Source of the DNA: a virus | Taxonomy: Duplodnaviria; Heunggongvirae; Uroviricota; Caudoviricetes | Reading direction: 5' to 3' (one strand) | IMG/VR virus record: IMGVR_UViG_2778261267_000001 | Length of the DNA: 40,147 nucleotides | In this document: positions 8,071 to 33,498 of the stretch, piece after piece | How the letters are laid out: every line of letters starts with the position of its first letter | How positions within the stretch are numbered: position 1 is the stretch's first letter | Translations under genes and position numbers: made by a program | Notes under the pieces: model-generated | What the model was told of the DNA's origin: nothing | The model's database searches: none | Seen by the model: the letters and a program-made list of their open reading frames with translations, nothing else

Positions 8071-8147
8071 TTACCTTGCGGGTAATAAAATGTTCTAATT
8101 TCTATTGATTTCATGTCTTATGTGGTTTTTAATTACCTCAGAGGTAA
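8071..8147 (+). promoter_or_regulatory. Regulated internal promoter region: two perfect TTACC-N5-GGTAA palindromes flanking a TATGTGGTT element
   Basis: TTACCTTGCGGGTAA at 8071-8085, TATGTGGTT at 8119-8127, and TTACCTCAGAGGTAA at 8133-8147 (a perfect 15-bp palindrome overlapping the RBS of the 8151 gene). Confidence 0.6.
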
Positions 8148-8150
8148 ATC

Positions 8151-8495
8151 ATGAGAAAACAGATACAGGCTCTTGGTCGACTCAAAACAGGCCAGATGAA
8201 CAAAACAGAATCTGCGTATTGCCAGCACCTTGAGCTGCGTAAACGTGCAGGAGAAATCGTCTGGTATCGATTTGAGGGTATCAAGCTTCGGTTAGCTGAC
8301 AACACGTTCTATACGCCCGATTTTGCTGTGATGCTCGCCACCGGCGAGATGGAACTGCACGAAGTGAAAGGTTTCTGGACCGACGACGCCAGGGTGAAAA
8401 CCAAAGTCGCCGCAGATCAGTATCCGTTCCGAATCATTGGGGTAACGGTTAAACCAAAGAAAGCAGGTGGTGGCTGGAACATCGAAGAGTTCTGA
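8151..8495 (+). CDS. DUF1064-like phage protein (putative PD-(D/E)XK-type nuclease / resolvase-like)
   Basis: 114-aa ORF with a D...ELHEVKG segment (D-x(n)-E-x-K) typical of small phage nuclease-fold proteins. Confidence 0.5.
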   Translation: MRKQIQALGRLKTGQMNKTESAYCQHLELRKRAGEIVWYRFEGIKLRLADNTFYTPDFAVMLATGEMELHEVKGFWTDDARVKTKVAADQYPFRIIGVTVKPKKAGGGWNIEEF

Positions 8496-8556
8496 ATCGA
8501 CGATCTTTTTAGTTATCAATGTAATCAATAAGTTATGTGGATAAGCGAGGGTAAAG

Positions 8557-9201
8557 ATGGAAATTAATATCAAAGGATTAGTTGCCGCCGGGCATGAGAT
8601 GGCTTCGGAACTGAAAGCTGAATGTGGTGCCGTTGATATGCGTAGTGTGGCAAAGCTGCTCAGCGATTTGGCAACGCAACTGGAAGTGCAACTGGCGCGT
8701 GCTAATGCGCTGGCCGAAGACCAGCAGAAAGCGATTGAGTCAATTAAGCAGGCTGATTCGGCCGTTAAGTTGGCGCACGAGAAGTTTTCAGCGCTGGCGG
8801 CGGAGAATGAGGCGTTGAAGTCGAACCTGATTTACTGGGGCGGCGAAGATTCAGGGCCTGTCAGAAGCCCGCTTGATTACGCCCATGAAGCCGGGCTGGA
8901 ATCTGGAGAGGAGTTTGAGATGCAAGTGGCAGCCAGAATGCCGAACCTGACTTATCGCGTTGTGTCCAGTTCCCGGTTCAAAACAGAAATAGAACTGATT
9001 GGCGGATTATTGCCGGAAACCCCAGCCACCGATGCTTTCCTGGCTGAAGTGCGGGCGCAGGCGTTTAATGACCTTTGCTCGGCGTTCGTTAAACACGCGA
9101 ATTTCGCGGGAATGGATGATGGTGAGCTAGTGAGGCTTAAATATGCGACGGACGCCCTGCTGCATTGTGCGGAACAGCTTCGCAAAGGAGGCAACCAGTG
9201 A
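8557..9201 (+). CDS. Hypothetical coiled-coil phage protein (214 aa)
   Basis: ORF with RBS (GAGGG) and a heptad-rich, alanine/glutamate-rich N-terminal half. Confidence 0.55.
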   Translation: MEINIKGLVAAGHEMASELKAECGAVDMRSVAKLLSDLATQLEVQLARANALAEDQQKAIESIKQADSAVKLAHEKFSALAAENEALKSNLIYWGGEDSGPVRSPLDYAHEAGLESGEEFEMQVAARMPNLTYRVVSSSRFKTEIELIGGLLPETPATDAFLAEVRAQAFNDLCSAFVKHANFAGMDDGELVRLKYATDALLHCAEQLRKGGNQ

Positions 9202-9743
9202 GTGTAACGGTTGAAAAGATTGATGTGTTGTCATTCGTTATAACCGGTGCAGAGAGACTAGATCCGATTCGAGTGATGATTGAAAACTACGAACCTGGTA
9301 AGGGAAGAATCACCATCACCTGCTACGGAAAAGCGTGGACTGCGGCTTGGTTTGCTATGGGCGGTGATGATGTGCAGACGTTCATTAAGCGAGTCAGCAA
9401 CGACTATCTAATCGACAATTTCGACCCTCAACTGCTAAGCACGGTCGACGATGACAACGATGCAAATCTGCTTTTCGTGAAGTCAGAAATCATAAAGTTA
9501 CGAAGAGAGAGAGAAATCGACGCCGTACTGGCTCGCGAAATGTGGGACGAGGCGGAAAACGCCGATGACGTAAAAGAAAGCTGCTGCTGTTTCGGCGTCG
9601 GTAACAAACTACTGAATCTCTTTGGTGATGATCCGTGGTGTGCCAACTGGCCAACGATACCAAACCCGAAATACCAGTATCTGGAACGCGTACTTAATGC
9701 AGTGAGAGACGGCCTTAAGCAAATAGAGAAGGTGGAACCATGA
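9198..9743 (+). CDS. Hypothetical phage protein (181 aa from the GTG start)
   Basis: AAAGGAGG RBS at 9185-9192 precedes the GTG at 9198, which overlaps the upstream stop; the track's longer start at 9165 is rejected. Confidence 0.55.
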   Translation: MSVTVEKIDVLSFVITGAERLDPIRVMIENYEPGKGRITITCYGKAWTAAWFAMGGDDVQTFIKRVSNDYLIDNFDPQLLSTVDDDNDANLLFVKSEIIKLRREREIDAVLAREMWDEAENADDVKESCCCFGVGNKLLNLFGDDPWCANWPTIPNPKYQYLERVLNAVRDGLKQIEKVEP

Positions 9744-10039
9744 CTGTATGTCTTATTGATAAACGTCGACGTGGGCAACAAATACCATCTGTTGAAATTC
9801 CGAATCACACATGGTTTTGCGTACTTGATATCGATGGTATGGATACGTTGATCGACACTCGTCATTACTGCGATACCGCAACAGCTACTCCTGCAAAAGC
9901 AAAGAAAATGGCTGCTCTGATAGAAAACTGGACTCCACCTGATGGTTGGTGCAATGGGAATGATCGAGATTGGCACGAAAAAATGAAGGGCTACATCTGC
10001 GATTTCTTACGTAAATGCAACGGATTCAGGGTGATGTGA
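9740..10039 (+). CDS. Hypothetical phage protein (99 aa)
   Basis: ORF with 4-nt start/stop overlap with the upstream gene; no motif recognised. Confidence 0.5.
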   Translation: MTVCLIDKRRRGQQIPSVEIPNHTWFCVLDIDGMDTLIDTRHYCDTATATPAKAKKMAALIENWTPPDGWCNGNDRDWHEKMKGYICDFLRKCNGFRVM

Positions 10040-10040
10040 C

Positions 10041-10757
10041 ATGAGCAAGATTGACTATCAGGCACTGCGTGAGGTGGCAGAGCGTGCAATTCCGGCAATG
10101 GAACGCCTGTTAATGTTGCCAGTTGATGATGATTTGTTAACTGAACAGGAACTTAAGGATTACGGTGTGGATATTGATGCGCTCAATGCCTTCAAATTTC
10201 TGACCGGACCAGAAACCGTGCTGGCGCTGCTGGATGAACGGGAAAGAAACCAGCAATACATCAAACGCCGTGACCAGGAGAACGAGGAAATTGCGCTAAC
10301 GGTAGGGAAGCTGCGTGTTGAGCTGGAAGCCGCAGAGAACAACCTTATTGATAGTGAGTGCCATGTTGCTGAACTGGAAGAAGCGCTACGCGATAAGCAG
10401 GCGTTACCTGAAGCATCAGAGAAGCACATAGCAGAACTGGAAACAAAAGCGAACCAGCAAACCAGAATAAGCGATAAGGGGCTGACAAAGCTGATTGCCG
10501 ATGCTGACAAAATGCTGGGTATGCGTTCGCCGGTTATAGGCAGCGAGTGGTGGACGCTTTTACGGCAGTTCCTGATTGAACTTCAGGATCGCCGCAGAAA
10601 CAGCATTTCTGAATCTGGAATCCGTGCTGAAACCCTGAATGATTTAATCCGACATATTGACAGAAACCTGGATATTGACGCGATGAAATCGCCGTTTGAA
10701 CTGTCATCTGAAATTGTGGATTACGTTAATAGGCAACTGCACAAGGATAATTCGTAA
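10041..10757 (+). CDS. Hypothetical coiled-coil protein (Ea22-like character)
   Basis: 238-aa ORF with a long central coiled-coil-like segment (LRVELEAAENNLIDSECHVAELEEALRDKQ). Confidence 0.55.
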   Translation: MSKIDYQALREVAERAIPAMERLLMLPVDDDLLTEQELKDYGVDIDALNAFKFLTGPETVLALLDERERNQQYIKRRDQENEEIALTVGKLRVELEAAENNLIDSECHVAELEEALRDKQALPEASEKHIAELETKANQQTRISDKGLTKLIADADKMLGMRSPVIGSEWWTLLRQFLIELQDRRRNSISESGIRAETLNDLIRHIDRNLDIDAMKSPFELSSEIVDYVNRQLHKDNS

Positions 10758-11119
10758 TGCAGGTGGCATTTGTTGGCCTGTTACCGCATCCGATCCGCCT
10801 TTGGGCGGATATGTCACTCATAAAAACGCATTTTTTTACTACTGATGGCGGCATTCCGGCACCAAAGCGCCGTCATACCGGTATTGCAGCGGCACGACGA
10901 GCAGCAAAGAGACGCAGGAGAGCAAAGCGATGAAAAACCGTAAAGCAAAGATTCTGTTAGTTCGTAGAAACGCTCCTGGCGTCTGGTAGTGGGTGAGACT
11001 CAGCAACCGACGGATGGGGTTGATGAAATATTACGGGATGATGGATTGTGGTTTTTGCAAAAAGCCCAGCGCGGCGCAAAACCGCTGGAAAAACCACTTG
11101 CGCACTAAAGGAGAGTGAT

Positions 11120-11635
11120 ATGGCGTTAACACACCGCGAACTCTGTCAGATTGCGTATAAGTTCCTTAAGCGCAACGGGTTCAAGGTTTGTTTTCATGAC
11201 CGCTTTATAGCTGTAACCAGTACCGGAGAACAGCCAGATGCTATTGGATTCAGAAATTCAGCATCATGCCTGATAGAGGCGAAGTGTTCTCGTGCTGACT
11301 TGTTGGCAGATAGAAAAAAGCGTTTTCGTAAAAATCCATCTCTTGGAATGGGCGACTGGCGATTCTTTATTAGTGAGCCGGGAATTATTTCAGTTGAGGA
11401 TTTACCACCTGGCTGGGGATTACTTCACGTTGTTAACGGAAGAGTACGGAAAGTACATGGGTGGCCCAAGGGTAATTGCTGTTGGGGTAATCCTGACGAT
11501 AAGCCATTTACTGGAAATAAGCAGGTTGAATGCGATTACATGTTATCTGCATTAAGGCGCATGGAGTTGAGAGGGCACCTTAATGAAATATATGACGGTG
11601 TAATTGTTAATAAGAAAGAAGGAAACGCGGCATGA
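11120..11635 (+). CDS. MmcB-like PD-(D/E)XK nuclease-fold protein
   Basis: 171 aa from the ATG at 11120 with AAGGAGAG RBS. Contains a PD...E.K arrangement (QPDAIGF ... LIEAKCSRADLLAD) followed by WRFFISEP, as in MmcB/DUF1052-type proteins. Local AT enrichment. Confidence 0.55.
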   Translation: MALTHRELCQIAYKFLKRNGFKVCFHDRFIAVTSTGEQPDAIGFRNSASCLIEAKCSRADLLADRKKRFRKNPSLGMGDWRFFISEPGIISVEDLPPGWGLLHVVNGRVRKVHGWPKGNCCWGNPDDKPFTGNKQVECDYMLSALRRMELRGHLNEIYDGVIVNKKEGNAA

Positions 11636-12450
11636 TCACTATTACCAATAAGAAACAGTATCCCAGCGAGCAATATCTTAATGAGCTGATCACCAACATA
11701 GAGTTTGCTGCAAGGGCACCAGTTGAAGTCGTGAGAGCAATGGCAGCAGAGCTACAGAAGCGGCGCGAAGCTGATAGCGCAGAACCAGTTGCTTATATTT
11801 TCAAACATCCGGCCGGGAAATTATTCTGGGCTTTAACGGATGAAAGTAATAAAGAGCAAGCGGACGTTATTCCTGTTTATGCCGCCCCTCCAGTGCCAGT
11901 AGTACCTGAAGAAAAACCAATGCCTAACCCTCTTAAAATGTACGCGGTCGATGCTGTTGCCGCTATTGCAGAGGTGAGAGGCTGGAATGCCTGCCGCGCC
12001 GCCATGCTTCAGGGTAGCCAACCTGTAAGCCAAACTTACAACTTGCCAGAATTAATCGAAGGCATGGAAGTTTCCATTGATGTAAGCACTTGTGATGCTG
12101 ATTTAGGTAATCGCTATTTCGGCACCGTCACCGAGGCGTTAGAACTTGATACAGCCAAGAATGGCTACATCCTCCTGATTCAGGACGCAGAGCCAAACTT
12201 CGATGTAAATGGCAACTCTCCGGTAACTCCGGATGGTTGGATAAGCTGTAGTGAGCGAATGCCGGAAGACACCAAAATGTTACTGGCATTTAGTCAAGGT
12301 GAAATCGTGGCCGCATATTGGAACTGGGTTGTAAATCCAATTGATTACAAAAAATATAGAGCTTTCACGTATTTATCAGGACATATCTTGGATGACGTAA
12401 CTCACTGGATGCCGCTACCGGAACCGCCGCAGGAGGTTAACCGTGGCTAA
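11632..12450 (+). CDS. DUF551-domain phage protein
   Basis: 272-aa ORF; C-terminal segment WISCSERMPE...THWMPLPEPP matches the DUF551 pattern common in enterobacterial prophages. Confidence 0.6.
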   Translation: MITITNKKQYPSEQYLNELITNIEFAARAPVEVVRAMAAELQKRREADSAEPVAYIFKHPAGKLFWALTDESNKEQADVIPVYAAPPVPVVPEEKPMPNPLKMYAVDAVAAIAEVRGWNACRAAMLQGSQPVSQTYNLPELIEGMEVSIDVSTCDADLGNRYFGTVTEALELDTAKNGYILLIQDAEPNFDVNGNSPVTPDGWISCSERMPEDTKMLLAFSQGEIVAAYWNWVVNPIDYKKYRAFTYLSGHILDDVTHWMPLPEPPQEVNRG

Positions 12451-12724
12451 CCTGCAACTTGCCGTCAAAGGTGAATACTTCGATGCCATGATTCGCAGAG
12501 AGAAAACGGAAGAGTATCGCCTGTGTAATGACTACTGGAATAAGCGAATTATGTTCCGGGAGTATGACCGCCTGATTATCACAAAGGGATATCCGAAGCG
12601 CGACGATTCCAGCCGCAGAATTGATGTTCCGTATGACGGATATGAAATCAAGACAATCACACATCCCCACTTCGGCGATAAACCGGTAAAGGTGTTCGCG
12701 ATAAAGGTGAATATTGATGGCTAA
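12443..12724 (+). CDS. ASCH-domain-like small protein
   Basis: 93-aa ORF with GTG start overlapping the upstream stop; N-terminal LQLAVKGEYFDAMIRREKTEEYR resembles ASCH-domain openings. Confidence 0.5.
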   Translation: MANLQLAVKGEYFDAMIRREKTEEYRLCNDYWNKRIMFREYDRLIITKGYPKRDDSSRRIDVPYDGYEIKTITHPHFGDKPVKVFAIKVNIDG

Positions 12725-13055
12725 ATCAGCAGCAGAGCGCAAAGCCGCTCAGAGAGCCAGACAAGCTGAATCCGGTGTGCGTAAGCTGGAAATTGTGCTT
12801 GATGCTCAGGAAATTGAAATGCTGGAGCGTAACTGTGCCACGCGTCGCCCCGGGCGCGCGCCTTACGAATTTGGTGAGTATATAGCGTTACTGATCCGCC
12901 AGGATGATGCACGCGTGCGCGGGCGTATAAAATCGATCAGCAGAAAACGTTGCGGTAAGTGCGGCGAGAGAGTTCCTGTGAATTCATGCCCGTGTAATGG
13001 TGACTCGCAATGCTGGGTGACCAAAGGCTGGCATGAAACGAAATTAATAGTGTGA
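12717..13055 (+). CDS. Hypothetical protein with Cys-rich C-terminus (candidate zinc-binding regulator)
   Basis: 112 aa from ATG 12717; C-terminal CGKCGERVPVNSCPCNGDSQCW cysteine cluster. Confidence 0.5.
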   Translation: MAKSAAERKAAQRARQAESGVRKLEIVLDAQEIEMLERNCATRRPGRAPYEFGEYIALLIRQDDARVRGRIKSISRKRCGKCGERVPVNSCPCNGDSQCWVTKGWHETKLIV

Positions 13056-13072
13056 CATGTCACGAAGGTGTT

Positions 13073-13285
13073 ATGCCAAAAATACGCTACGACCTTGAAG
13101 ATATGAGAGATAACTCAGCAAATTTTCCGAAAGAGGTTAAATTTCTCATGCATAAGTATGGTTGCGCCAGGAGGGATATAGTTATCGACAGTCAGCACCC
13201 TTGCGGCGAGGATGTAATTTTCATTCGCGGTAAATGGGAAGGGTATCTTGACGAGAGTTTTTACGATGAATTTGATGGACTTTGA
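13073..13285 (+). CDS. Hypothetical small protein (70 aa)
   Basis: ORF with GAAGGTG RBS before the ATG at 13073; last gene before a strong terminator. Confidence 0.45.
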   Translation: MPKIRYDLEDMRDNSANFPKEVKFLMHKYGCARRDIVIDSQHPCGEDVIFIRGKWEGYLDESFYDEFDGL

Positions 13286-13290
13286 ATACT

Positions 13291-13317
13291 GCCGCCAACT
13301 ATGGCGGCTTTATTTTG
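13291..13317 (+). terminator. Intrinsic terminator immediately upstream of the small terminase gene
   Basis: GCCGCC-AACTAT-GGCGGC hairpin followed by TTTATTTT; lies inside the track's N-terminal extension of the terS ORF. Confidence 0.7.
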
Positions 13318-13359
13318 CATGGTACTATTACCACAACGGTAACTATTACCACGGTGGTT

Positions 13360-13956
13360 ATGATGCCTGCTGAACCTAAAACCTATAAACGCAAATCAAC
13401 GCAATTTAAGCCACTAACAGCAATGCAGGAGGCTTATTGCCAGTCATACATCAAAACGCCTGAAAACCAGACTCAGGCAGCGATTAACGCAGGATTCTCC
13501 CCAAATACAGCGGCAGTTAAAGCCAGTGTCATGATGCGCGATGAACGCATTCAAAAACGGATTGCCGAGTTGATGGAGGAGCGCAACAAACGAATGCGCG
13601 TCAGTGCTGATTACGTTCTCATGCGCCTGGTGGAGATCGACCAGATGGACGTGATCGACATCCTCAACGACGATGGGAGCCTTAAACCAATCCGTGAGTG
13701 GCCGAAAATCTGGCGCACTACGCTTAGCGGCTTTGATCTGTCATCGACCATCATGAACATGAACGAGGATTCGATAGAGACAATCCTCAAAAAAATTAAA
13801 TGGCCTGACAAGGTGAAGAACCTTGAGCTGATTGGTAAGCATGTTGATGTCAACGCGTTCAAAGAACGCCTGGATGTTAATGTGAATGTGACAATTGCTG
13901 ATCGCATAGCGGCAGCCAGGAAGAGACTGAAAGAACGTCAGGATGGCAATCAGTGA
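13360..13956 (+). CDS. Terminase small subunit
   Basis: 198 aa from the MMPAEPK start (RBS GGTGG); helix-rich small protein immediately upstream of and overlapping the large terminase. Confidence 0.7.
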   Translation: MMPAEPKTYKRKSTQFKPLTAMQEAYCQSYIKTPENQTQAAINAGFSPNTAAVKASVMMRDERIQKRIAELMEERNKRMRVSADYVLMRLVEIDQMDVIDILNDDGSLKPIREWPKIWRTTLSGFDLSSTIMNMNEDSIETILKKIKWPDKVKNLELIGKHVDVNAFKERLDVNVNVTIADRIAAARKRLKERQDGNQ

Positions 13957-15428: not shown

Positions 15429-15475
15429 TCCGCTTTAGGGGATAATGTCGTTGATATCCTCTGATGAGGATAAAA

Positions 15476-15505
15476 CAAAGCCAGCTCATAGGCTGGCTGT
15501 TTGTG
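15476..15505. terminator. Bidirectional terminator between the terminase operon and the convergent moron gene
   Basis: AGCCAGC-TCATAG-GCTGGCT hairpin flanked by A-rich sequence on one side and T-rich on the other. Confidence 0.65.
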
Positions 15506-15518
15506 ATATGTCACGGTG

Positions 15519-15890
15519 TTATTGCTCGCTTAACTTCTGCTTCAGCAAGTAACCTTCAAGCATCCAGATTTTGTTTACGGCATTCTGTCTGGCAATCTTC
15601 CGACCAATTTCTGCATCAAAGTTTTCCGGGCTTGCACAGGCGCTATATCCGGTGACGGTGAAGCCGTTGCGCAGCACCAGGACGCAGAACGTCAGCAGAG
15701 AAAGTGATTCGTGCGGCTGGTAGTTTACCTCTCCGCCAGTATGTTTCGCTTTTATGGCTACGCCAAAGGCACCATCTTCTGCTGTGAAATATGCCTCCTG
15801 AGCAATAATGCTCTCGATATGGTCTGGCGTAACGCGCGGCGCGGCTAAACCTTTAGCCTGAATTTCAGATTCAATGTCTTTGTCACTCAT
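15519..15890 (-). CDS. Reverse-oriented moron protein (possibly Phage_gp49_66-family; uncharacterised)
   Basis: 123-aa ORF on the opposite strand to the late genes, with AAGGTGAG RBS and terminators on both sides. Family name is from memory of similar prophage proteins and is unverified. Confidence 0.55.
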   Translation of the reverse strand: MSDKDIESEIQAKGLAAPRVTPDHIESIIAQEAYFTAEDGAFGVAIKAKHTGGEVNYQPHESLSLLTFCVLVLRNGFTVTGYSACASPENFDAEIGRKIARQNAVNKIWMLEGYLLKQKLSEQ

Positions 15891-15905
15891 AGTCTAATCT
15901 CACCT

Positions 15906-16093: not shown

Positions 16094-16170
16094 TGGCGTG
16101 GCATGCAGGATTCGAACCTGCGACCAACCGCTTAGAAGGCGGTTGCTCTGTCCAACTGAGCTAATGCCAC
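16094..16170 (-). tRNA. tRNA-Arg (anticodon UCU, decodes AGA)
   Basis: 77-nt cloverleaf folded by hand: acceptor GTGGCAT/ATGCCAC, D-stem GCTC/GAGC, anticodon stem ACCGC/GCGGT with loop CTTCTAA (anticodon TCT), T-arm GCAGG-TTCGAAT-CCTGC, discriminator G, encoded CCA. Confidence 0.85.
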
Positions 16171-16491: not shown

Positions 16492-16569
16492 TTACCCAAA
16501 AGGTAATAATTCGTGCGTTAAATGTCAACTACCTACGATAAATAAATCATATGTGGTTAAATTGGTAAT
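16492..16569 (+). promoter_or_regulatory. Candidate late promoter region: TTACC-N5-GGTAA palindrome plus TATGTGGTT-N5-GGTAAT element
   Basis: TTACCCAAAAGGTAA at 16492-16506; TATGTGGTT at 16550-16558 followed by GGTAAT at 16564-16569; about 30 bp upstream of the first virion-block gene. Confidence 0.55.
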
Positions 16570-16596
16570 AATTTAATTGCGTACGGAGTCATTGAT

Positions 16597-16803: not shown

Positions 16804-16817
16804 CCGGAGTCATTGAA

Positions 16818-19488: not shown

Positions 19489-19496
19489 GAGAGGAA

Positions 19497-20489
19497 ATGA
19501 CAATGGCTGTTAAAGGCTTAACTGCGCTAACGCTGGCTGACTGGGGTAAGCGCGTCGATCCAAACGGGAAAGTCGATAAGATTATCGAGCTTCTCGGTCA
19601 AACTAACCCGATCCTTCAGGATATGCCTTTTGTCGAAGGGAACCTTCCTACCGGACACCGAACCACCATTCGTTCTGGTTTACCTTCAGCTACCTGGCGT
19701 TTGCTGAACTATGGCGTACAGCCAAGCAAATCAACCACAGTGCAGGTAACCGATTCCGTTGGCATGCTGGAAACCTATGCTGAAGTCGATAAATCACTGG
19801 CTGATCTGAACGGCAATACCGCTGAATTCCGCCTGTCTGAAGACCGCGCATTTATTGAAGCGATGAATCAGCAGATGGCGCAGACGCTGTTTTATGGTGA
19901 TTCCAGCGTTAACCCTCAGCAGTTTATGGGACTGTCCTCCCGCTATTCCAGCCTGTCTGCGGGTAATGCTCAGAACATCATTGATGCTGGTGGCACGGGT
20001 ACAGATAACACCTCAATCTGGTTAGTGGTGTGGGGCGAAAACACCGTGCATGGCATCTTCCCGAAAGGGCAGAAGGCTGGCATCCAGATGGAAGATAAAG
20101 GCCAGGTGACACTGGAAGATGCTAATGGCGGCAAGTACGAAGGCTATCGCACCCATTACAAATGGGACAACGGACTTGCTCTGCGTGACTGGCGTTATGT
20201 TGTTCGCATTGCAAACATCGATGTCAGCAATCTTTCAGAACCTTCCTCTGCCGCAAATATTGCGAAGTTGATGGTTAAAGCACTGCATCGCATTCCAAAC
20301 CGTGGAATGGGTCGCCCGGTGTTCTACATGAACCGCACTGTAGGCCAGGCTCTTGATCTGCAATCTCTGGAGAAAACATCTCTGGCGATCAGCGTAAAAG
20401 AGACAGAAGGCGAGTGGTGGACTTCATTCCGTGGTGTACCAATCCGTGAAACTGATGCGCTTCTGGAAACAGAAGCCCGTGTGGTGTAA
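19497..20489 (+). CDS. Major capsid protein
   Basis: 330-aa ORF after the scaffold gene with a strong RBS (AGAGGAAATGA); assignment by position and size in the portal-scaffold-capsid order. Confidence 0.75.
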   Translation: MTMAVKGLTALTLADWGKRVDPNGKVDKIIELLGQTNPILQDMPFVEGNLPTGHRTTIRSGLPSATWRLLNYGVQPSKSTTVQVTDSVGMLETYAEVDKSLADLNGNTAEFRLSEDRAFIEAMNQQMAQTLFYGDSSVNPQQFMGLSSRYSSLSAGNAQNIIDAGGTGTDNTSIWLVVWGENTVHGIFPKGQKAGIQMEDKGQVTLEDANGGKYEGYRTHYKWDNGLALRDWRYVVRIANIDVSNLSEPSSAANIAKLMVKALHRIPNRGMGRPVFYMNRTVGQALDLQSLEKTSLAISVKETEGEWWTSFRGVPIRETDALLETEARVV

Positions 20490-21362: not shown

Positions 21363-21374
21363 GCAGGAGTGTAT

Positions 21375-22303: not shown

Positions 22304-24774
22304 TGGCTATCAGTTGGATCCAGCCCAGCTTTGCCGGTGGTGAGATTGGACCGTCGTTGTACGGACGTATCGACATGGCGAAGTACCAGGTGGCATTGCG
22401 CAAGTGCGATAACTTTATCGTGCGGCAGTATGGCGGCGTTGAGAATCGACCTGGTACGCGTTTTGTCGGTGCCGCCAAATACCCAAATCGGAAATGCCGC
22501 CTGATCCCGTTCCAGTTCTCGACGGTTCAGACTTATGCTCTGGAGTTCGGACACCAGTACATGCGTGTTATCAAAGATGGTGCGTTGGTGCTGAACAGCA
22601 GTAATGTTATTTATGAAATTGCCACGCCATATACTGAAGCCGATCTGTTCCTAATTAAATTCACGCAAAGCGCAGACGTGCTTACGCTGGTTCATCCGGC
22701 ATACCCGCCGAAAGAGTTGCGACGTTATGCGCATGACAACTGGCAACTGGTTGATGTGGTAACGAAGAACGGGCCATTTGAAGATATCAATATTGACGAG
22801 TCAGTGACGGTTTATGCCAGCGCCAGCACCGGGACAATTACGTTAACGGCAAGCGCCTCTATTTTTGGCGCGGAGCAGGTAGGCAAATTGTTCTATCTGG
22901 AACAGCCAGCAGTGGATTCAGTACCGGTATGGGAAACCAGTAAGAGTACGTCGATTGGCGATATTCGCCGTGCAGACAGTAACTACTATCGCGCCGTTAC
23001 AGCAGGCAAAACAGGTACTTTGCGCCCTTCGCATACAGAAGGCACATCATGGGATGGCTGGGGCGGATCCGGTGATGATGATACTGGCATTGAGTGGGAA
23101 TATCTGCACAGTGGTTTTGGCATTGCCCGTATCACTGCTGCAAATGGCACTACTGCAACTGCTGAGGTGATTTCCTATATCCCTTCGCAGGTCGTTGGCG
23201 AGGATAATGCCAGCTATAAATGGGCTAAATATGCCTGGAACAGTGTTAATGGTTATCCTGGCACTGTTGTTTATTATCAACAACGTCTTTACTTCGCCGC
23301 ATCGACTGCGTTCCCTCAGACTATCTGGGCCAGCCGTACTGGGGATTATAAGGATTTTGGCAAAAGCAATCCTACGCAGGATGACGACAGAATTATCTAC
23401 ACCTATGCCGGACGTCAGGTTAATGAGATCCGCCACCTGATTGATGTTGGTTCGCTGGTGGCGCTGACTTCCGGAGGTGAGTACGTCATTACCGGCGACC
23501 AGAACAAAGTATTAACCCCATCATCATTTGCATTCAGTTCTCAGGGATCAAATGGCTCAAGCAACGTCCCACCAATTGCCGTGGCGAATATTGCTCTGTT
23601 CGTCCAGGAGAAAGGCAGTGTTGTCCGTGATCTGGCCTACTCATTCGATGTTGACGGCTATCAGGGGAACGACCTGACCATCCTTGCCAATCATCTTTTT
23701 CAGAAGCACAGCATTGTTGACTGGTGCTTCTCTATTGTCCCTTACTCCAGCGCCTTCTGCATTCGTGATGACGGTAAATTACTGGTGATGACCTATTTGC
23801 GTGATCAGCAGGTTTTTGCATGGGCACCACAATCCAGTACCGGAAAATATGAAAGCACATGCAGTATCAGCGAAGGCAATGAAGATGCGGTGTATTTCGT
23901 CGTTAACCGAACCGTTAACGGGCAAACAGTGAGATACATCGAGCGGCTGTCCAGCCGTTTATTTACCAGCGATGAAGACGCTTTCTTTGTTGATTCTGGC
24001 CTTAGCTATGATGGAAGAAATACGTCTGACAGAACGATGACAATCACTGGTGGTTCTGGCGAATGGGATTACCGCGCGGAATATACAATCAGTATTTCTG
24101 GCGGTGCGTACTTCACCAGTAGTGATGTCGGTGCGCAACTACAGTTCCCTTATACCGGAACTGATCCTGATACTGGCGATGAAGTGTCAAAAGAATTACG
24201 TTGCGACATTATTTCTGTAACCAGCAACACCGCTGTAGTGGTTCGTGCTAACAGGAACGTCCCGCCATCCCTCAGGAATGTGGCCACCACGAACTGGCAG
24301 ATGGCGCGCCGGGCATTTGGCGGCTTGTCTCATCTTGAAGGTCAGACCGTAAACATCCTCTCTGATGCGAACGTGGAACCACAGAAAGTAGTTTCCGGAG
24401 GTGCCGTCACGCTGGAATCACCGGGGGCTGTAGTGCACATCGGCCTGCCAATAACTGCTGAATTCGAAACACTGGATATCAACATTAACGGACAGGAAAC
24501 GCTGCTGGACAAAAAACAGGTGATCCCATCCGTTACTCTGGTTGTGAATGCCAGCCGCGGCATCTGGGCGACTACGCCCGGCGGTAAATGGTACGAATAT
24601 CCACAGCGTGAATTCGAGTTCTACGATGATCCTGTTGATGACGCTACCGGAAAAGTAGAAGTGAAACTGGACAGTAACTGGGGCAAAAACGGACGTGTAA
24701 GAATCCGTCAGCTTGACCCGTTGCCGCTGTCTGTTCTTGCCGTTATTCCTCGCCTTACTGTTGGGGGATTCTGA
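22303..24774 (+). CDS. Tail tubular protein B-like / nozzle (T7 gp12 position) - putative
   Basis: 823-aa ORF (T7 gp12 is about 800 aa) following the gp11-like gene with an overlapping start. Confidence 0.45.
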   Translation: MAISWIQPSFAGGEIGPSLYGRIDMAKYQVALRKCDNFIVRQYGGVENRPGTRFVGAAKYPNRKCRLIPFQFSTVQTYALEFGHQYMRVIKDGALVLNSSNVIYEIATPYTEADLFLIKFTQSADVLTLVHPAYPPKELRRYAHDNWQLVDVVTKNGPFEDINIDESVTVYASASTGTITLTASASIFGAEQVGKLFYLEQPAVDSVPVWETSKSTSIGDIRRADSNYYRAVTAGKTGTLRPSHTEGTSWDGWGGSGDDDTGIEWEYLHSGFGIARITAANGTTATAEVISYIPSQVVGEDNASYKWAKYAWNSVNGYPGTVVYYQQRLYFAASTAFPQTIWASRTGDYKDFGKSNPTQDDDRIIYTYAGRQVNEIRHLIDVGSLVALTSGGEYVITGDQNKVLTPSSFAFSSQGSNGSSNVPPIAVANIALFVQEKGSVVRDLAYSFDVDGYQGNDLTILANHLFQKHSIVDWCFSIVPYSSAFCIRDDGKLLVMTYLRDQQVFAWAPQSSTGKYESTCSISEGNEDAVYFVVNRTVNGQTVRYIERLSSRLFTSDEDAFFVDSGLSYDGRNTSDRTMTITGGSGEWDYRAEYTISISGGAYFTSSDVGAQLQFPYTGTDPDTGDEVSKELRCDIISVTSNTAVVVRANRNVPPSLRNVATTNWQMARRAFGGLSHLEGQTVNILSDANVEPQKVVSGGAVTLESPGAVVHIGLPITAEFETLDININGQETLLDKKQVIPSVTLVVNASRGIWATTPGGKWYEYPQREFEFYDDPVDDATGKVEVKLDSNWGKNGRVRIRQLDPLPLSVLAVIPRLTVGGF

Positions 24775-25238
24775 TGATCGATGTTCGAATTGTTCCCGCT
24801 ACCGAAGAGCATCTTCAGATGATTTTGCCGGATGTTCGTCAGGCTGATATTGACGAACTGTATGCGGTATCGCTGATGACTACCGAAGATGCGCTGCGTG
24901 TTGGTCTTCGCACTGCGACTATGGCCTGGTCAGGATTTGCGAACGGAGAACTGGTAACCATGTTTGGCGTATCTCCGGCGTCAATGATCGGTGGCAATGG
25001 TACGCCCTGGCTGGTAGGAACCAGCCGTATTGAAAAATATCAGAAGACATTTCTTCGCCACTGCCGCCCTGTATTGCAGCAGATGCTGGCAGTTTATCCA
25101 CGCCTGGAAAACTACGTCGACGAGCGAAACCATGTTGCCAAAGCATGGCTGCACTGGCTTGGATTCAGGCTTGAAGAAGCCGCGCCTTATGGTGCTCTTG
25201 GTCTTAATTTCCACAGATTTCACATGGAGAGAAAATAA
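24774..25238 (+). CDS. Hypothetical virion-assembly protein (T7 gp13 position)
   Basis: 154-aa ORF with overlapping start; function by position only. Confidence 0.4.
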   Translation: MIDVRIVPATEEHLQMILPDVRQADIDELYAVSLMTTEDALRVGLRTATMAWSGFANGELVTMFGVSPASMIGGNGTPWLVGTSRIEKYQKTFLRHCRPVLQQMLAVYPRLENYVDERNHVAKAWLHWLGFRLEEAAPYGALGLNFHRFHMERK

Positions 25239-25783
25239 TGTGCGATCCGGTTATTGCTGGTGGCGCAATGCTCGCCATGAGTGGCATTCAGGCATACACC
25301 CAGTACCAACAGGGAAAGTATGCCTCGAAGGTTGCAGAAGCGAACGCAGATATAGCCACAGCTCAGGCAAATGATGCAATAAACAGAGGTAACGCTGAAG
25401 CTGAGCAACGGCGCAGAGAGACCCGACAGCGGCTTGGTACACAGGCGGCGACAATGGGGGCGACCGGCGCCGATTTATCTACCGGTAACGCGCTGGATAT
25501 ATTTGGCGACACTGCCCAGTTTGGCGCTCTTGATTCGCTGACGACGGTGAATAACGCGCAACGCGAGGCTTACGGTTATCAGGTTCAGGCTGCCAACTAT
25601 AAAGCAGAAGCCAGTTCAGCCCGTAAACAGGGGAATGTGGGAGCAGCAACAACATTGCTCACTGCGCCTCTGAAGGCATACGGTGCGTACCAGATGTTTG
25701 GTGGGACGTGGAGTCCGTTTACTCAAAGCACCCCTGCGCCAATCGGGGCAGCAGCAGGAACCAGATTACCCGGAGGATTATAA
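25238..25783 (+). CDS. Internal virion protein (T7 gp14 position) - putative
   Basis: 181-aa Ala/Gln-rich protein with a hydrophobic N-terminus; position. Confidence 0.45.
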   Translation: MCDPVIAGGAMLAMSGIQAYTQYQQGKYASKVAEANADIATAQANDAINRGNAEAEQRRRETRQRLGTQAATMGATGADLSTGNALDIFGDTAQFGALDSLTTVNNAQREAYGYQVQAANYKAEASSARKQGNVGAATTLLTAPLKAYGAYQMFGGTWSPFTQSTPAPIGAAAGTRLPGGL

Positions 25784-30095: not shown

Positions 30096-30100
30096 ATTAA

Positions 30101-32575
30101 ATGAGACAGGAATGTATACAAGCGGTCCAGCAGGCGGCGCAGCGCACGTTAACGGCGCGAGAAATACAGAACATTGAAGACCGCATTTATCGAAATATGC
30201 GCTCCATTGCTCGTGATGACCCGATGTCGTGGCGACAACTTTCCGAATCAGAACGGTTGTATCGTGCAGCACAATTGGCATCTGAAGAATTACAGCGAGA
30301 AGCGGCATTAAAGAAACGTCGTGTGGCTCTCACTATAGCCGCACGTCAGAGATTGGATAAATTTATCAATAGCTATCAAGGGGCTGATGGGAAACTTGGC
30401 GCTCTTAACCGTACTATTGCTTTTAATGCAGACGGTAAATCGAATTTCCTCTCTGTTGAATCCAGAACAAAAGCCACTCGTGATTATGCATTGAGTCAAT
30501 TGCAGGAGGCATTTGAAGCAGTTGATCCTCGCTTTTTTGGCCTGTTTGAAGATGAAGCGGGCGTACGTGACCTGGTATATGAAATGCGGGGGCAAAATAC
30601 TGGCAATGCTAAAGCAAGAAAAGGTGCTAAAGCGTGGAGAGAAGTTACAGAGCTGCTGCGCCGCCGGTTTAATGATGCTGGTGGGGACATTGGCTATCTC
30701 GAAAACTGGGGGATCCCTCAACATCATTCTATGGAAAAGGTTGGTGCGGTATCAAAGGATAAGTGGGTTAGCGATGTTATAGGTAAGCTGGATCGCAAAT
30801 ATTATACCCGAGCCGATGGACAACTGATGAACGATGCCGAGTTGTCTGCATTTCTTGGAGAGGCTTATAACACGATCGCTACTGGTGGGCTGAATAAGCT
30901 TACTGATACCGGAATGCGAATTTCCGGCGCACGTGCTAACCGTGGTAATGCATCACGACAGATACATTTCAAAGATGCAGATTCCTATCTCCAATATCAA
31001 CAACTTTATGGCGATCGCTCTCTATGGGAAATCATGGTCGGTCACCTGGAAGGTATCAGTAAAGATATTGCTCTGGTGGAAACATATGGTCCAAACCCCG
31101 ATCATGTTTTCCGCTCCCTTCTTGATCAGGTTAAGGCAGAAACGGCAACAGCTAACCCGAGTAAAACCGGTAAAGTCGAGCGGCTGGCGAACAACACAGA
31201 GAATCTGTACAACTTTATTTCCGGAAAGACACAGCCTGTAGCGAATCCGCACATCGCGCGATGGTCTGACAATATCCGCAACTGGCTGGTTGCCAGCAGG
31301 CTCGGATCCGCGTTGCTGTCATCGTTCTCTGATCTTGGAACCATGTATCTGTCTGCGAAGGTTACCAACCTTCCAATGAACCAGTTATTCCGCAACCAGC
31401 TTGAAGCTATGGACCCAACGAACCGTACAGAACTTGCGCGGGCGCGCCGCGCTGGTCTGGCGATGGAATCTCTACTTGGCAGCGTTAACCGCTGGGCGAT
31501 GGATAATATGGGGCCGTCAGTGTCTCGTTGGGCGGCAACGGCGGTAATGCGTGCCAGTGGGCTTACAGCATGGTCAGATGCGCACAAGCGCGCCTATGGC
31601 GTAACCATGATGGGAAGCCTGGGAGAAGTAGTGTCACGGACACCAGACCTTCGTAGCCTTGATGACTCTGATTTTCGTATCCTGAAAAGCAAAGGGATTA
31701 CTGACACAGACTGGAGCGTATGGAAGTTGGCGCAACAGGAGGACTGGGGGAACGGTAATAATACGATGCTGACGCCGGAAAGCATTATGCGTATCCCTGA
31801 TTCAGCAGTTAAACATCTTGGTGAGCCTGAACGCGTGAAATTTGAGGCAATGCGTAAACTGCTCGGTGCCGTAACTGAAGAAGTTGATATGGCTGTTATT
31901 ACACCGGGAGCACGTGAGCAACTGATAACCGGTTCTGGTATTCAGCGTGGAACATGGAAAGGTGAATTAACGAGAAGTGTTTTCCTGTTTAAATCGTTCC
32001 CTATCTCGGTTGTTATGCGTCACTGGTCACGCGCTATGGGTATGCCGTCTGCTGGTGGGCGTGCGGCATATATTGCGACGTTTATTGCCAGTACGACCAT
32101 TCTTGGCGCTTTGTCGCAGCAACTTAACGACCTTGCGTCTGGTCGTAATCCTCGAGAGATGACAGGAGAAGATGCCGCAAAGTTCTGGCTTGGTGCTCTA
32201 CTGAAAGGTGGTGGTCTTGGCCTGTACGGTGACTTTTTATTGTCAGATCACACTAGGTACGGAAGCGGCGCGCTGGCGTCGATGCTTGGCCCGGTAGCTG
32301 GTCTGGTTGATGACGTAGTGAAGATTGCTCAGGGCATACCGTTAAATGCTGTGGAAGGGAAGAGTGAGCAGATTGGTGGTGATCTGGTGAAGCTGGGGAA
32401 AGGTTTGATGCCTGGTGCGAATCTCTGGTACTTGAAGGCGGCTCTCGATCACATGATCTTTAACCAGATGCAGGAGTATTTTTCACCAGGCTATTTGCGT
32501 AAAATGGAGCAACGTTCGAAGAAAGAGTTTAACCAGACATACTGGTGGCGACCTCAGGATGTCACTCCGCAATAA
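30101..32575 (+). CDS. Internal virion/ejection protein (T7 gp16-like position, 824 aa)
   Basis: Large ORF immediately upstream of the tailspike region; role by position only. Confidence 0.55.
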   Translation: MRQECIQAVQQAAQRTLTAREIQNIEDRIYRNMRSIARDDPMSWRQLSESERLYRAAQLASEELQREAALKKRRVALTIAARQRLDKFINSYQGADGKLGALNRTIAFNADGKSNFLSVESRTKATRDYALSQLQEAFEAVDPRFFGLFEDEAGVRDLVYEMRGQNTGNAKARKGAKAWREVTELLRRRFNDAGGDIGYLENWGIPQHHSMEKVGAVSKDKWVSDVIGKLDRKYYTRADGQLMNDAELSAFLGEAYNTIATGGLNKLTDTGMRISGARANRGNASRQIHFKDADSYLQYQQLYGDRSLWEIMVGHLEGISKDIALVETYGPNPDHVFRSLLDQVKAETATANPSKTGKVERLANNTENLYNFISGKTQPVANPHIARWSDNIRNWLVASRLGSALLSSFSDLGTMYLSAKVTNLPMNQLFRNQLEAMDPTNRTELARARRAGLAMESLLGSVNRWAMDNMGPSVSRWAATAVMRASGLTAWSDAHKRAYGVTMMGSLGEVVSRTPDLRSLDDSDFRILKSKGITDTDWSVWKLAQQEDWGNGNNTMLTPESIMRIPDSAVKHLGEPERVKFEAMRKLLGAVTEEVDMAVITPGAREQLITGSGIQRGTWKGELTRSVFLFKSFPISVVMRHWSRAMGMPSAGGRAAYIATFIASTTILGALSQQLNDLASGRNPREMTGEDAAKFWLGALLKGGGLGLYGDFLLSDHTRYGSGALASMLGPVAGLVDDVVKIAQGIPLNAVEGKSEQIGGDLVKLGKGLMPGANLWYLKAALDHMIFNQMQEYFSPGYLRKMEQRSKKEFNQTYWWRPQDVTPQ

Positions 32576-32584
32576 GGAAGTGTT

Positions 32585-32758
32585 GTGTTTTTAATTATTT
32601 TGAGTGTGATAATTTCTGGTGGATTGTTATTTATTGACCGCTACAAATATTTTCTTAACCCTCAGACTCAAGCTATTTGCTGGTTCATCTTTGTTGTGCA
32701 GGGAGTAGTTCTTGTTGCAAGCCTTATTGAGGGGAGGCCTCTTATTTTTACTGGGTAA
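32585..32758 (+). CDS. Small hydrophobic membrane protein (57 aa, GTG start)
   Basis: ORF below the track cut-off, translated by hand (VFLIILSVIISGGLLFIDRYKYFLNPQTQAICWFIFVVQGVVLVASLIEGRPLIFTG). Two predicted TM helices; AGGAAG 4 nt upstream of the GTG; AT-rich. Confidence 0.35.
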   Translation: MFLIILSVIISGGLLFIDRYKYFLNPQTQAICWFIFVVQGVVLVASLIEGRPLIFTG

Positions 32759-32770
32759 ATAGGTGACTAC

Positions 32771-33067
32771 ATGCAAGCTATAGGATTCATTGTTTATATC
32801 GTCGTTGGTCTTTTTCAGTTGGCAGCAATTATGGCTGGGCTTGAATCATGGTGGGGATTGCACTGGATAATTGCAGCCCCCATCGCTTTCATCGTGAGCT
32901 ATATTCCATTTGTTGGAGCGATTGTTGGTATGGTTGGCGCTGTGGATGTATGGCGGTGGGAGTGGTGGCAGGCTGGCCTTCTCTTCTTTGGTGGGATCAT
33001 CTTTGCTATTGTCTGCGGTGGAATGTCATCATTTTTCGAATGGCTATCATTCAGAAAAGGAACGTGA
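32771..33067 (+). CDS. Small integral membrane protein (98 aa)
   Basis: ORF with AGGTG RBS; almost entirely hydrophobic with Trp-rich loops (three or more TM helices); followed by a terminator. Confidence 0.55.
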   Translation: MQAIGFIVYIVVGLFQLAAIMAGLESWWGLHWIIAAPIAFIVSYIPFVGAIVGMVGAVDVWRWEWWQAGLLFFGGIIFAIVCGGMSSFFEWLSFRKGT

Positions 33068-33075
33068 CATGTCAC

Positions 33076-33100
33076 AGGCCGCTTTCGCGGCCTTTTCTTT
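33076..33100 (+). terminator. Intrinsic terminator after the membrane-protein genes
   Basis: AGGCCGC-TTTC-GCGGCCT hairpin followed by TTTCTTT; preceded by a 12-bp palindrome GTGACATGTCAC (33064-33075). Confidence 0.65.
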
Positions 33101-33374
33101 ATGTAGTTTGTTTTCGTAATTGTTCGGCACAATAGTCGAGATGTGTTTGCAGATCCTGCATAGACATCTGTGAGCTGGTGACGTAGTTAATCAGTGCAGT
33201 CAGTTCGGCAAGTGGGCCATCGACATTAAATCCATCCTTATCGAGATCCCGGAGTAATTTCATCAAGTGCGATCCATCCACCAGTGACCTGACGCCTCCC
33301 GGCGTGTGAATCCTTTCGGTAAATCCGTCTTCCAGTGGATAGTGATACTGCTGCATCTTATCTTCTCCATGCAA
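33099..33374 (-). CDS. Hypothetical protein (91 aa), divergent from the tailspike gene
   Basis: ORF convergent with the membrane-protein genes and sharing a 177-bp divergent control region with the tailspike gene; no motif recognised. Confidence 0.45.
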   Translation of the reverse strand: MHGEDKMQQYHYPLEDGFTERIHTPGGVRSLVDGSHLMKLLRDLDKDGFNVDGPLAELTALINYVTSSQMSMQDLQTHLDYCAEQLRKQTT

Positions 33375-33432
33375 TAACTGTATATTTATACAGTATCAAA
33401 TAATTTGTTTGCTATCCAGCACGTTTTGCGAA

Positions 33433-33498
33433 TTACCTGAAAGGTAATATCTATTCGTGTTTATGGGTTATCTATCCATATGTGGTTTTTAAGGTAAT
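33433..33498. promoter_or_regulatory. Tailspike / divergent-gene control region: TTACC-N5-GGTAA palindrome plus TATGTGGTT-N5-GGTAAT element
   Basis: TTACCTGAAAGGTAA at 33433-33447; TATGTGGTT at 33479-33487; GGTAAT at 33493-33498. Confidence 0.55.

Follow-up and report, generated by a model that had tools for sequence, protein, structure and literature searches.

A 14-bp dyad at the virion, tailspike and lysis promoters of an epsilon15-like prophage: an apparent late-promoter element

The stretch of DNA analysed here, 40,147 nucleotides of the IMG/VR virus record IMGVR_UViG_2778261267_000001 (the window, below), is an epsilon15/phiV10-like (Uetakevirus-type) prophage, and the element under study is a short sequence dyad that stands upstream of its virion, tailspike and lysis genes. 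Epsilon15-type phages are structural-biology models and serotype converters of Salmonella and E. coli O157; such prophages are very common, and phiV10 reporter phages have been built on this type of chassis. Their immunity switch, made up of Rep, Ant and LexA, has been solved at the atomic level. Literature searches for late-promoter work on this genus gave nothing relevant, the paper on vB_EcoP_ZX5 contains predicted promoters and over-expression phenotypes only, and neither a late regulator nor a late promoter is annotated in the three records inspected (epsilon15, phiV10 and SPC32H). From left to right, the window is laid out as follows, an arrangement in which the lytic genes would be divided among several short transcription units with one promoter per unit:

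Integrase gene, followed by the leftward early operon
5100-5684, minus strand: rep, encoding a repressor with two helix-turn-helix (HTH) domains and no peptidase domain (Pfam HTH_3)
5839-6069, plus strand: cro-like gene, followed by the replication genes
8151-13285: 'middle' block, followed by the terminase genes
16597 onwards: virion genes
33099-33374, minus strand: ant, encoding a small antirepressor (PDB 5D50_E, 'Anti-repressor protein', E 4e-47)
33378-33393: consensus LexA box, CTGTATATTTATACAG, directly upstream of ant
33552-35750: tailspike gene, followed by an O-antigen-modification gene
37053 onwards: lysis cassette

The dyad and its conservation

The original prediction described a 9-mer, TATGTGGTT, at the starts of three transcription units, in a fixed composite with operator sequences that looked like a dedicated promoter class. 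The 9-mer occurs on the plus strand at 8119-8127, 16550-16558 and 33479-33487 (sites 1 to 3), that is, in three copies against 0.37 expected, a number reached in none of 100 shuffles. Exactly 5 bp past each copy stands a half-site, TTACC at 8133 or GGTAA at 16564 and 33493, and a perfect TTACC-N5-GGTAA palindrome begins 48, 58 and 46 bp ahead of the first base of the copies (at 8071, 16492 and 33433, respectively). The composite was thus correctly, though incompletely, described at all three sites, its distance of 46-58 bp being counted from start to start. To judge from the comparisons below, however, the conserved unit is not the exact 9-mer but a 14-bp dyad of the form A-W-C-C-N6-G-G-T-T, with AT conserved at its centre, of which the 9-mer is the right arm together with the centre. 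The dyads and dyad-like sequences of the window are listed here:

4986-4999, plus strand: ATGCGTATCTGGTT, weak dyad-like sequence in the spacer of the promoter PL; 14.9 bits in a weight matrix of the dyad
6145-6158: AACCAAATTTGGTT, perfect dyad after the cro-like gene and its terminator (the post-cro site), followed by GATC and eight T
8114-8127, plus strand: TGTCTTATGTGGTT, half-dyad that fills the spacer of the middle promoter and contains the 9-mer; right arm and centre alone are conserved
16545-16558, plus strand: AATCATATGTGGTT, dyad box of the virion-operon promoter, containing the 9-mer; 21.0 bits
33474-33487, plus strand: ATCCATATGTGGTT, dyad box of the tailspike promoter, containing the 9-mer; top score, 22.1 bits
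36987-37000, plus strand: AACCGCATATGGTT, dyad box of the lysis-cassette promoter, with perfect arms; 16.8 and 19.0 bits on the two strands

The weight matrix, which was built from IMG/VR promoter samples anchored on flanking features, scores at least 14 bits at eight positions of the window against 0.5 in shuffles. Its top four loci are 33474, 16545, 36987 and 6145, and the half-dyad at 8114 is absent from the top hits. The three copies first reported are real, but further copies of the element had been missed, at the lysis promoter (36987-37000) and at the post-cro site (6145-6158). In epsilon15, the core CATATNNGGTT marks all four of the corresponding loci, those of the virion, tailspike and lysis genes and the post-cro one, always on the plus strand. 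The dyad signal appears only once the AT-rich centre is included, as in the weight matrix; AACC-N6-GGTT with a free centre and one mismatch shows no enrichment in epsilon15, with 15 occurrences observed and 12 expected. A degenerate copy that had been proposed at 11045-11055 does not survive, since the 120 nt ahead of it contain no operator and a -10 element does not follow it, and its 7-mer TGTGGTT is commonplace, with 8-9 copies in the complete epsilon15 and phiV10 genomes. The PL sequence at 4986, which is seen in E. coli-type relatives and not in the epsilon15-type PL, may be a chance resemblance.

Alignments of the virion, tailspike and middle regions were made for phages of Escherichia, Enterobacter, Klebsiella and Salmonella. 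No alignment is obtained upstream of the operator, whereas the interval from the operator to the ribosome-binding site holds invariant blocks in phages of all four host genera. Before the virion genes, ATATGTGGTTAAATTGGTAATAATTTAA is invariant and the dyad sits in a 28-nt invariant block (eight phages, four host genera); before the tailspike gene, the invariant sequence is CATAT-nn-GGTT-N5-GGTAATAGAAT, where nn is GT, AT, AC or AA. Over all relatives the two central bases of the 9-mer read GT, AT, CT, AC or AA. At the middle promoter, six phages have C-n-T-w-T-r-TGGTT in common, placed between a conserved -35 (CTATTGA) and a -10 that is fused to an operator. The lysis promoter of phiV10 carries a perfect dyad palindrome, AACCATATATGGTT, and the orthologue of the post-cro site in epsilon15 reads AACCATATACGGTT; an anchored IMG/VR sample of the post-cro site gave the same dyad.

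The IMG/VR samples extend these observations. A sample drawn by the portal protein (at least 80 loci) proved near-identical and of no use for footprinting. The composite CATATNNGGTT-N5-GGTAA has at least 120 matches, and among those listed at least 71 carry an operator of the phage repressor Rep starting exactly 44 or 56 nt upstream. Since the remaining matches listed are scattered over unrelated viruses, the composite appears to be restricted to this phage group, in two orthologous contexts. This first scan had forced the presence of the box, and sampling was therefore repeated with anchors on flanking features only, namely the operator plus GGTAATA for the tailspike and virion types and the sequence downstream of the promoter for the lysis type. 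Among about 32 unique tailspike-type promoters listed, CATAT is present in all 32 and GGTT in 29, while the 29 nt upstream of the box and the N5 spacer vary freely. The virion type has an invariant TGGTTAAATTGGTAATAATTTAA, and at least 81 unique lysis-type promoters give the consensus AWCCRYATRTGGTT. Across hundreds of related contigs, the dyad and a -10 of the form TAnAnT or TATnAT are fixed and their surroundings drift. The element is thus co-conserved among related prophages, as a dyad with a variable 9-mer centre.

The operator is a frequent and not an obligatory companion of the dyad. A full Rep operator lies 42-45 nt upstream of it in 71 of the 87 lysis-type promoters listed, and in 15 of the 87 the dyad and the -10 are kept with no operator within 150 nt. 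Sites 1-3, the post-cro site and 28 of those 87 promoters also have a consensus half-site at a distance of 4-5 bp from the dyad. In the Sodalis phage phiSG1, the nearest relative without Rep-type operators, the box is absent as well; upstream of its gp3-like gene (about 19770-19810) a different inverted repeat, TTATCTTTC-N8-GAAAGATAA, is found, which may be another repressor's operator at the orthologous position. The operator-plus-dyad cassette seems portable, for phage EC.W1-9 (27891-27943) has one ahead of a hypothetical cargo gene that is missing from the window; it consists of a full Rep operator and, 39 nt on when counted between the starts, a dyad with perfect arms, AACCCTATATGGTT.

Neither the 9-mer nor the dyad is annotated as such in the epsilon15, phiV10 and SPC32H records; in epsilon15 the lysis-site copy is annotated only in that it falls within a predicted RNase III site (24755-24817). 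The 14-bp dyad has apparently gone undescribed so far, and apparently defines a class of late promoters without a -35 in Uetakeviruses.

Promoters and Rep operators around the dyad

The TTACC-N5-GGTAA palindrome, which the original prediction took for an operator and noted at three sites, has eight perfect copies in the window against 0.01 expected, and three more with one mismatch (5788, 13346 and 36943). On sequence evidence, it is the operator of an SPC32H-type repressor, Rep. The rep product matches SPC32H Rep over its full length (PDB 5D50_A, 'Repressor', E 2e-41, residues 1-189). The epsilon15 GenBank record (AY150271.2) carries 'protein_bind: repressor' features at seven places, before terS, gp3 (virion), the tailspike gene and the middle block (one) and in the PL region (three); these sites read as the same palindrome, ATTACC-N5-GGTAAT, and the perfect palindromes of the window match them in position. 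Because the epsilon15 annotators had marked these sites, the operator palindrome and its genome-wide dispersal were already known. Given a consensus LexA box before an SPC32H-type ant, the prophage is therefore induced via an SOS-controlled antirepressor and not by repressor cleavage; Ant would inactivate Rep. This Rep/Ant/LexA induction circuit was reportedly worked out in SPC32H studies of 2013 and 2016. The operators are distributed as follows:

4966-5042, minus strand: PL control region, with operators at 4966-4980 and 5028-5042, 62 bp apart, flanking TTGACA-17-AATCAT
5740-5802: OR region, between rep and the cro-like gene, with operators at 5740-5754 and 5788-5802
8071-8085: distal operator of the middle promoter, centred near -62; epsilon15 orthologue annotated 'repressor' at 35906-35922
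8133-8147: proximal operator of the middle promoter, fused to the -10 and covering +1, with its centre 62 bp from that of the distal one
13328-13360: two adjoining operators directly before terS, without a dyad; epsilon15 site annotated 'repressor' at 12-27
16492-16506: operator upstream of the virion promoter, centred near -82; epsilon15 orthologue annotated 'repressor' at 2931-2947
16564-16568, plus strand: half-operator GGTAA of the virion promoter, between dyad and -10, at about -17 to -13
33433-33447: operator upstream of the tailspike promoter, centred near -70, in the divergent ant-tailspike control region; epsilon15 orthologue annotated 'repressor' at 19895-19911
33493-33497, plus strand: half-operator GGTAA of the tailspike promoter, between dyad and -10, at about -17 to -13
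36943-36957: one-mismatch operator (TCACC...GGTAA) upstream of the lysis promoter, centred near -70

The promoters that go with these operators have the following parts, in which the transcription starts (8140, 16581, 33510 and 37020) are predicted from the sequence:

PL: -35 TTGACA; weak dyad fills the spacer; distal Rep operator centred at -62
P_middle, 8105-8133, plus strand: -35 TTGATT (8105-8110), 17-bp spacer, -10 TTTAAT (8128-8133), start near 8140; dyad centred at -19.5, filling the spacer; distal operator centred at -62
P_virion, plus strand: no -35, inferred -10 TAATTT (16569-16574), in the same register as the tailspike -10, start near 16581; dyad centred at -29.5; distal operator centred at -82
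P_tailspike, plus strand: no -35, -10 TAGAAT (33498-33503), start near 33510; dyad centred at -29.5; distal operator centred at -70
P_lysis, plus strand: no -35, -10 TATGAT (37008-37013), also picked by a promoter scan, start near 37020; dyad centred at -26.5; distal operator centred at -70

The tailspike -10 reads TAGAAT, TACAAT, TAAACT or TAAAAT in relatives, with variation at hexamer positions 3 and 5 only, and the lysis -10 reads TATGAT, TATAAT, TATCAT or TATTAT, with variation at position 4 only. Since it is the weakly conserved hexamer positions alone that vary, both are read as sigma-70 -10 elements. At the virion promoter, the hexamer is invariant or TAAATT in relatives; among the -10 assignments made for the four rightward promoters, this one is the weakest. 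An alternative register for sites 2 and 3, with TAATAG/TAATAA as the -10, was rejected because the base that varies among relatives would then be the critical -7 position. Likewise rejected was a promoter overlapping the lysis operator (TTATCA-18-TAGAAT), which is unconserved in phiV10, epsilon15 and PAT1.

Recognisable -35 and -10 hexamers at the canonical sigma-70 spacing of 16-18 bp are found only at site 1 (TTGATT-17-TTTAAT) and at PL (TTGACA-17-AATCAT). At the three late promoters no -35 was found, the corresponding windows reading ATCATA (virion), TCCATA (tailspike) and TGAACC (lysis), and none has an extended -10 (TG at -15/-14). In the lysis and tailspike types, the 8 nt that precede the dyad have a low information content. 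The distance from operator to -10 is 65 nt in both of these types, while the dyad between them is shifted by 3 bp (41 or 44 nt from the operator).

The notion of one dedicated promoter class therefore needs to be divided. The conserved architecture is not a product of chance, but the three sites first reported do not form a single class: site 1 has a canonical promoter core with a half-dyad in the spacer and two full operators 62 bp apart, which is a PL-like arrangement. What the virion, tailspike and lysis units have in common is one promoter architecture, with the dyad upstream of a conserved -10.

Several further regularities surround these promoters. PL and P_middle are built alike, each with two full Rep operators exactly 62 bp apart from centre to centre and with the first base of the proximal operator serving as the last base of the -10; the 62-bp spacing is likewise present in the epsilon15 PL, and the operator pairs suggest that one Rep tetramer, or a pair of them, loops the promoter. 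The distal operator centres, at -62 (5042 and 8071), -70 (33433 and 36943) and -82 (16492), step by about one helical turn, and no explanation tested accounts for this regularity. Class I activators such as CRP bind at -61.5, -71.5 and -82.5, positions that coincide with these centres. In the virion promoter, an additional invariant inverted repeat, TTAAATT-GGTAAT-AATTTAA (16557-16576), surrounds the half-operator, and the N5 spacer AAATT is invariant there, being free to vary in the tailspike type. The E. coli clade has another box half, AACCGGATATG (33504-33514, minus strand), in inverted orientation 16 nt past the tailspike dyad, so that GGTT and AACC bracket the half-operator and the -10 symmetrically; the relatives from Salmonella, Klebsiella and Enterobacter are without it. 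A conserved motif located between LexA box and Rep operator, CTATCCAGCA, probably serves the ant promoter, which runs on the opposite strand, as its -35. Around the post-cro site (6091-6172), a strong terminator after the cro-like gene is followed by a degenerate operator (6125-6139), the dyad, GATC and the eight T, without a late-type promoter, and 5 nt (6140-6144) separate the GGTAA of that operator from the dyad. The terS gene is preceded by a terminator and two neighbouring operators 18 bp apart (region 13291-13360), where neither a dyad nor a clear promoter is seen. A tRNA gene (16097-16170, minus strand; Rfam, 73 bits) lies in the variable region that separates the terminase from the virion genes, and its counterpart at the equivalent place in SPC32H is a tRNA-Arg gene.

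Activation, repression and the candidate regulators

We tentatively interpret the virion, tailspike and lysis promoters as activator-dependent late promoters that are analogous, and not homologous, to those of the P1 Lpa system and are silenced by Rep in lysogens, an interpretation held with somewhat less than even confidence. The dyad would stand where a -35 hexamer belongs, upstream of the conserved -10, and host sigma-70 RNA polymerase alone would use the three promoters inefficiently; a phage-encoded dimeric regulator on the dyad would recruit or stabilise the polymerase and in this way act as the late-gene switch. In the lysogen, Rep would hold each unit off from the operator centred at -70 or -82, and in two late promoters it would also act via the GGTAA half-site at -17 to -13. 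In P_middle, and possibly in PL, the same regulator on a half or weak dyad within the spacer would lower transcription. The suggestion that these promoters depend on an activator, already made in the original prediction, is plausible because all three have a conserved -10, no conserved -35 and no TGn, and activation itself is what we infer from this anatomy.

Since the dyad resembles the Rep operator, it has to be asked whether Rep alone could account for it. In such a case the dyad would be a low-affinity, N6-spaced Rep operator, and a tetramer anchored upstream or on the half-site would cover the core promoter; the composite would be purely repressive, and weak constitutive late promoters would fire upon Rep removal and rising copy number. 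The arms of dyad (AACC/GGTT) and operator (TTACC/GGTAA) have ACC/GGT in common, the one-mismatch operator at 13346 has the right half GGTTA, and both the nearby half-sites and the full operators upstream in most lysis-type promoters listed would suit this arrangement, as would the shared phage distribution of Rep and the dyad, both of which phiSG1 lacks. A tetrameric Rep with an unusual arrangement of DNA-binding domains, as described for SPC32H Rep in PMC9638917, points the same way. On the other hand, the spacing is off by 1 bp and the flanks differ, and a -35-less promoter for the main structural operon would be left unexplained. The dyad is not merely the partner of a Rep operator, because 15 of the 87 lysis-type promoters listed keep it without one; nor is it just a second Rep site, because its AT centre is conserved while the N5 of the Rep operators is free, and because the operator is fixed with respect to the -10 (65 nt) while the dyad shifts by 3 bp. 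We consider an explanation by Rep alone unlikely.

Somewhat less probable still is that the dyad binds a negative regulator of the phage, for example the 76-aa Cro-like protein, and that this regulator occludes the core promoters of the middle, late, lysis and replication units, which it would thereby throttle or time. Dyad centres that vary over the core promoter (-19.5, -26.5 and -29.5) suit occlusion better than activation, the dyad fills the spacer in P_middle and PL, and the cro-like gene is alone in the immediate-early rightward unit with a dyad directly past its terminator. Small HTH repressors, that of phage 434 for instance, also have operators of this format, a 14-bp dyad with 4-bp arms. 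However, three late promoters without a -35 would be weak even when unrepressed, the OR/PR region, where a Cro would be expected to act, is without a dyad, and conservation through the centre is atypical of HTH operators.

Alternatively, no dedicated factor might be involved, and the similarity among sites would come from promoter-operator cassettes duplicated by common descent and held by sigma-70 constraints, with CATA as a weak -35. The tailspike-type hexamer at -35 to -30, T-T/C-C-A-T-A, matches TTGACA at up to four of six positions, and sites 1 and 3 have 14 consecutive bases, TATGTGGTTTTTAA, in common. We regard this as quite improbable: sigma-70 makes no use of the positions at which GGTT (-26 to -23) and C (-33) are invariantly present, the CATA of the lysis type is not usable as a -35 because the dyad there is 3 bp nearer to the -10, and conservation extends across four host genera whose flanks have diverged beyond alignment. 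An element acting in RNA, as an RNase III site, leader structure or weak terminator hairpin in read-through transcripts, is suggested by the predicted epsilon15 RNase III site that overlaps the lysis-site dyad and by the T8 run after the post-cro dyad, yet it is very improbable, as the dyads lie upstream of the transcription starts given by the inferred -10 elements, stems would have only 4-5 bp and be A/U-rich, Rfam matches at dyad positions are lacking and no T-run follows the virion-site dyad. Host factors and sigma factors (IHF, Fis, a CRP half-site, a DnaA box, sigma-54, sigma-32, sigma-E and H-NS) were compared by eye with the sites, by way of their consensus sequences, and fit poorly.

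Activator-dependent late promoters thus remain our preferred interpretation, and several observations weigh against it. At the post-cro dyad (6145-6158), no -10 was found at 7-10 nt past the dyad, and the model does not explain the role of this site. The distance from dyad to -10 is not constant (10, 10, 7 and 0 nt), which is unusual for an activator working in one fixed geometry with RNA polymerase. Rep itself may be the protein that binds the dyad, since a half-site lies 4-5 bp away and the arms are alike, and late expression from weak promoters could come about through genome copy number alone. Nor can any one candidate be tied to the dyad: Rep and the Cro-like, phrog_536 and PerC-like proteins all occur together with it, and the latter three are 77-85% conserved between clades. 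Finally, no box was found beside distant phrog_536 homologues, as looked for in a lambda-like phage (fragmentary) and a P2-like Yersinia phage.

As to the protein, scans of the early, middle and regulatory proteins against Pfam, PHROG and NCBIfam agree with the original prediction in that no Q-like or N-like antiterminator was found; the same scans bring up regulator candidates that it had overlooked:

12714-13055, plus strand: 113-aa protein, phrog_536 'transcriptional regulator' (E 1.6e-54)
5839-6069, plus strand: 76-aa Cro-like HTH protein, phrog_35 'transcriptional repressor'
2089-2388, leftward operon: PerC-like 'transcriptional activator'
2498-2746, minus strand: AlpA-like protein, noted beside the main candidates

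These four proteins are 77-85% identical between the window and epsilon15, as against 42% for Rep, whose homologues were found only in this phage group. The Cro-like protein (78% identical to epsilon15 gp39) is encoded by the only gene between PR and the first terminator. The phrog_536 gene is the penultimate open reading frame of the middle operon, followed by a 77-aa reading frame (13052-13285), a terminator and two operators before terS. Its product has a strand-helix-helix-like N-terminal part, possibly a ribbon-helix-helix segment, and an invariant Cys cluster, and gave no match in Pfam, NCBIfam or PDB. In hhalign comparisons, the expected strand and helix A (residues 24-38) aligned with CopG at a non-significant E of 0.18 and Arc gave nothing, and the AlphaFold2 monomer model is poor (predicted local distance difference test score, 57). 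N15 gp46 is among its homologues, as are proteins from phiKO2, P2-like Yersinia phages and Vibrio phages.

It is conceivable, and in our judgement doubtful, that the phrog_536 protein is a previously unrecognised late activator of Uetakeviruses (taken here as epsilon15, phiV10, SPC32H, SPN1S and many prophage relatives) that binds a -35-replacing dyad at three or more late promoters and dampens early and middle ones. If so, it would represent a new family of late activators and a one-protein early-to-late switch on top of the Rep/Ant circuit. The dyad is a precise cis-element which, together with the predicted starts and the three main candidates, makes late-gene control testable, and it would aid the choice of late promoters in engineered reporter phages as well as the annotation of prophages.

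Comparison with known late-promoter systems

The closest parallel is found in phage P1, which has 11 late promoters, each with a 9-bp inverted repeat (the Lpa site), plus the primary repressor C1 (PMC10695390). In the P1 record, a '-22 region' and a -10 are annotated, a C1 operator lies over Plpa, and lpa is placed directly before pacA. In both systems there are several separate late units, and the inverted repeat of their promoters stands a short way ahead of a -10 that can be recognised, while a -35 is missing. As in the P1 class, the element recurs at late units; in the window, epsilon15 and phiV10 it precedes those for virion, tailspike and lysis proteins. In both, operators of the primary repressor are scattered over the genome and immunity includes an inactivator, that of P1 being Coi, annotated as 'C1 repressor inactivator'. 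P1 also has its activator gene directly before the terminase genes under repressor control, a position comparable to that of a candidate gene here. The two differ in the box, which in P1 is a 9-bp repeat (AAGTTACTT, ATGTGACTT) and here a 14-bp AWCC-N6-GGTT dyad centred at -26.5 to -29.5, and in that a Rep operator accompanies almost every late promoter here. The C1 operators of P1 are asymmetric, whereas the Rep operators are palindromic. No homologue of Lpa was found: the phrog_536 candidate, the only protein compared directly, showed no similarity (BLASTP E 21), and the other scanned proteins had no match to a family named after Lpa. For this reason, the dyad promoters are regarded as an analogue, and not a member, of the P1 Lpa family.

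With SPC32H and epsilon15, the window shares the Rep system itself, including Rep and Ant homologous to the solved proteins, a LexA box before ant, and ATTACC-N5-GGTAAT palindromes at OR and PL and before terS and the virion, tailspike and middle units; in the records of these two phages, by contrast, the dyad is unannotated. SPC32H Rep is described in PMC9638917 as binding in the form of a tetramer with unusually arranged DNA-binding domains. The control of late genes by lambda Q is similar in that a phage-specific element lies between or around the late core-promoter hexamers (the Q-binding element inside PR') and that the gene of the regulator, here a candidate, closes the early/middle operon before the packaging genes. 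It differs in that no Q homologue was found here, in the number of sites (five here as compared to one) and in the use of separate late units with their own promoters in place of one long antiterminated transcript.

Small phage regulators that act on several -35-deficient late promoters through a dyad are also known from P2/186 (Ogr) and phi29 (p4). Ogr, a zinc-binding protein, has a site, TGT-N12-ACA, with its centre at about -55, and p4 binds still further upstream, whereas the dyad described here overlaps the -35 and spacer region. In phi29, one and the same protein represses early promoters and activates the late one, and the different positions of the dyad in the promoters of this prophage would allow a single regulator to do likewise.

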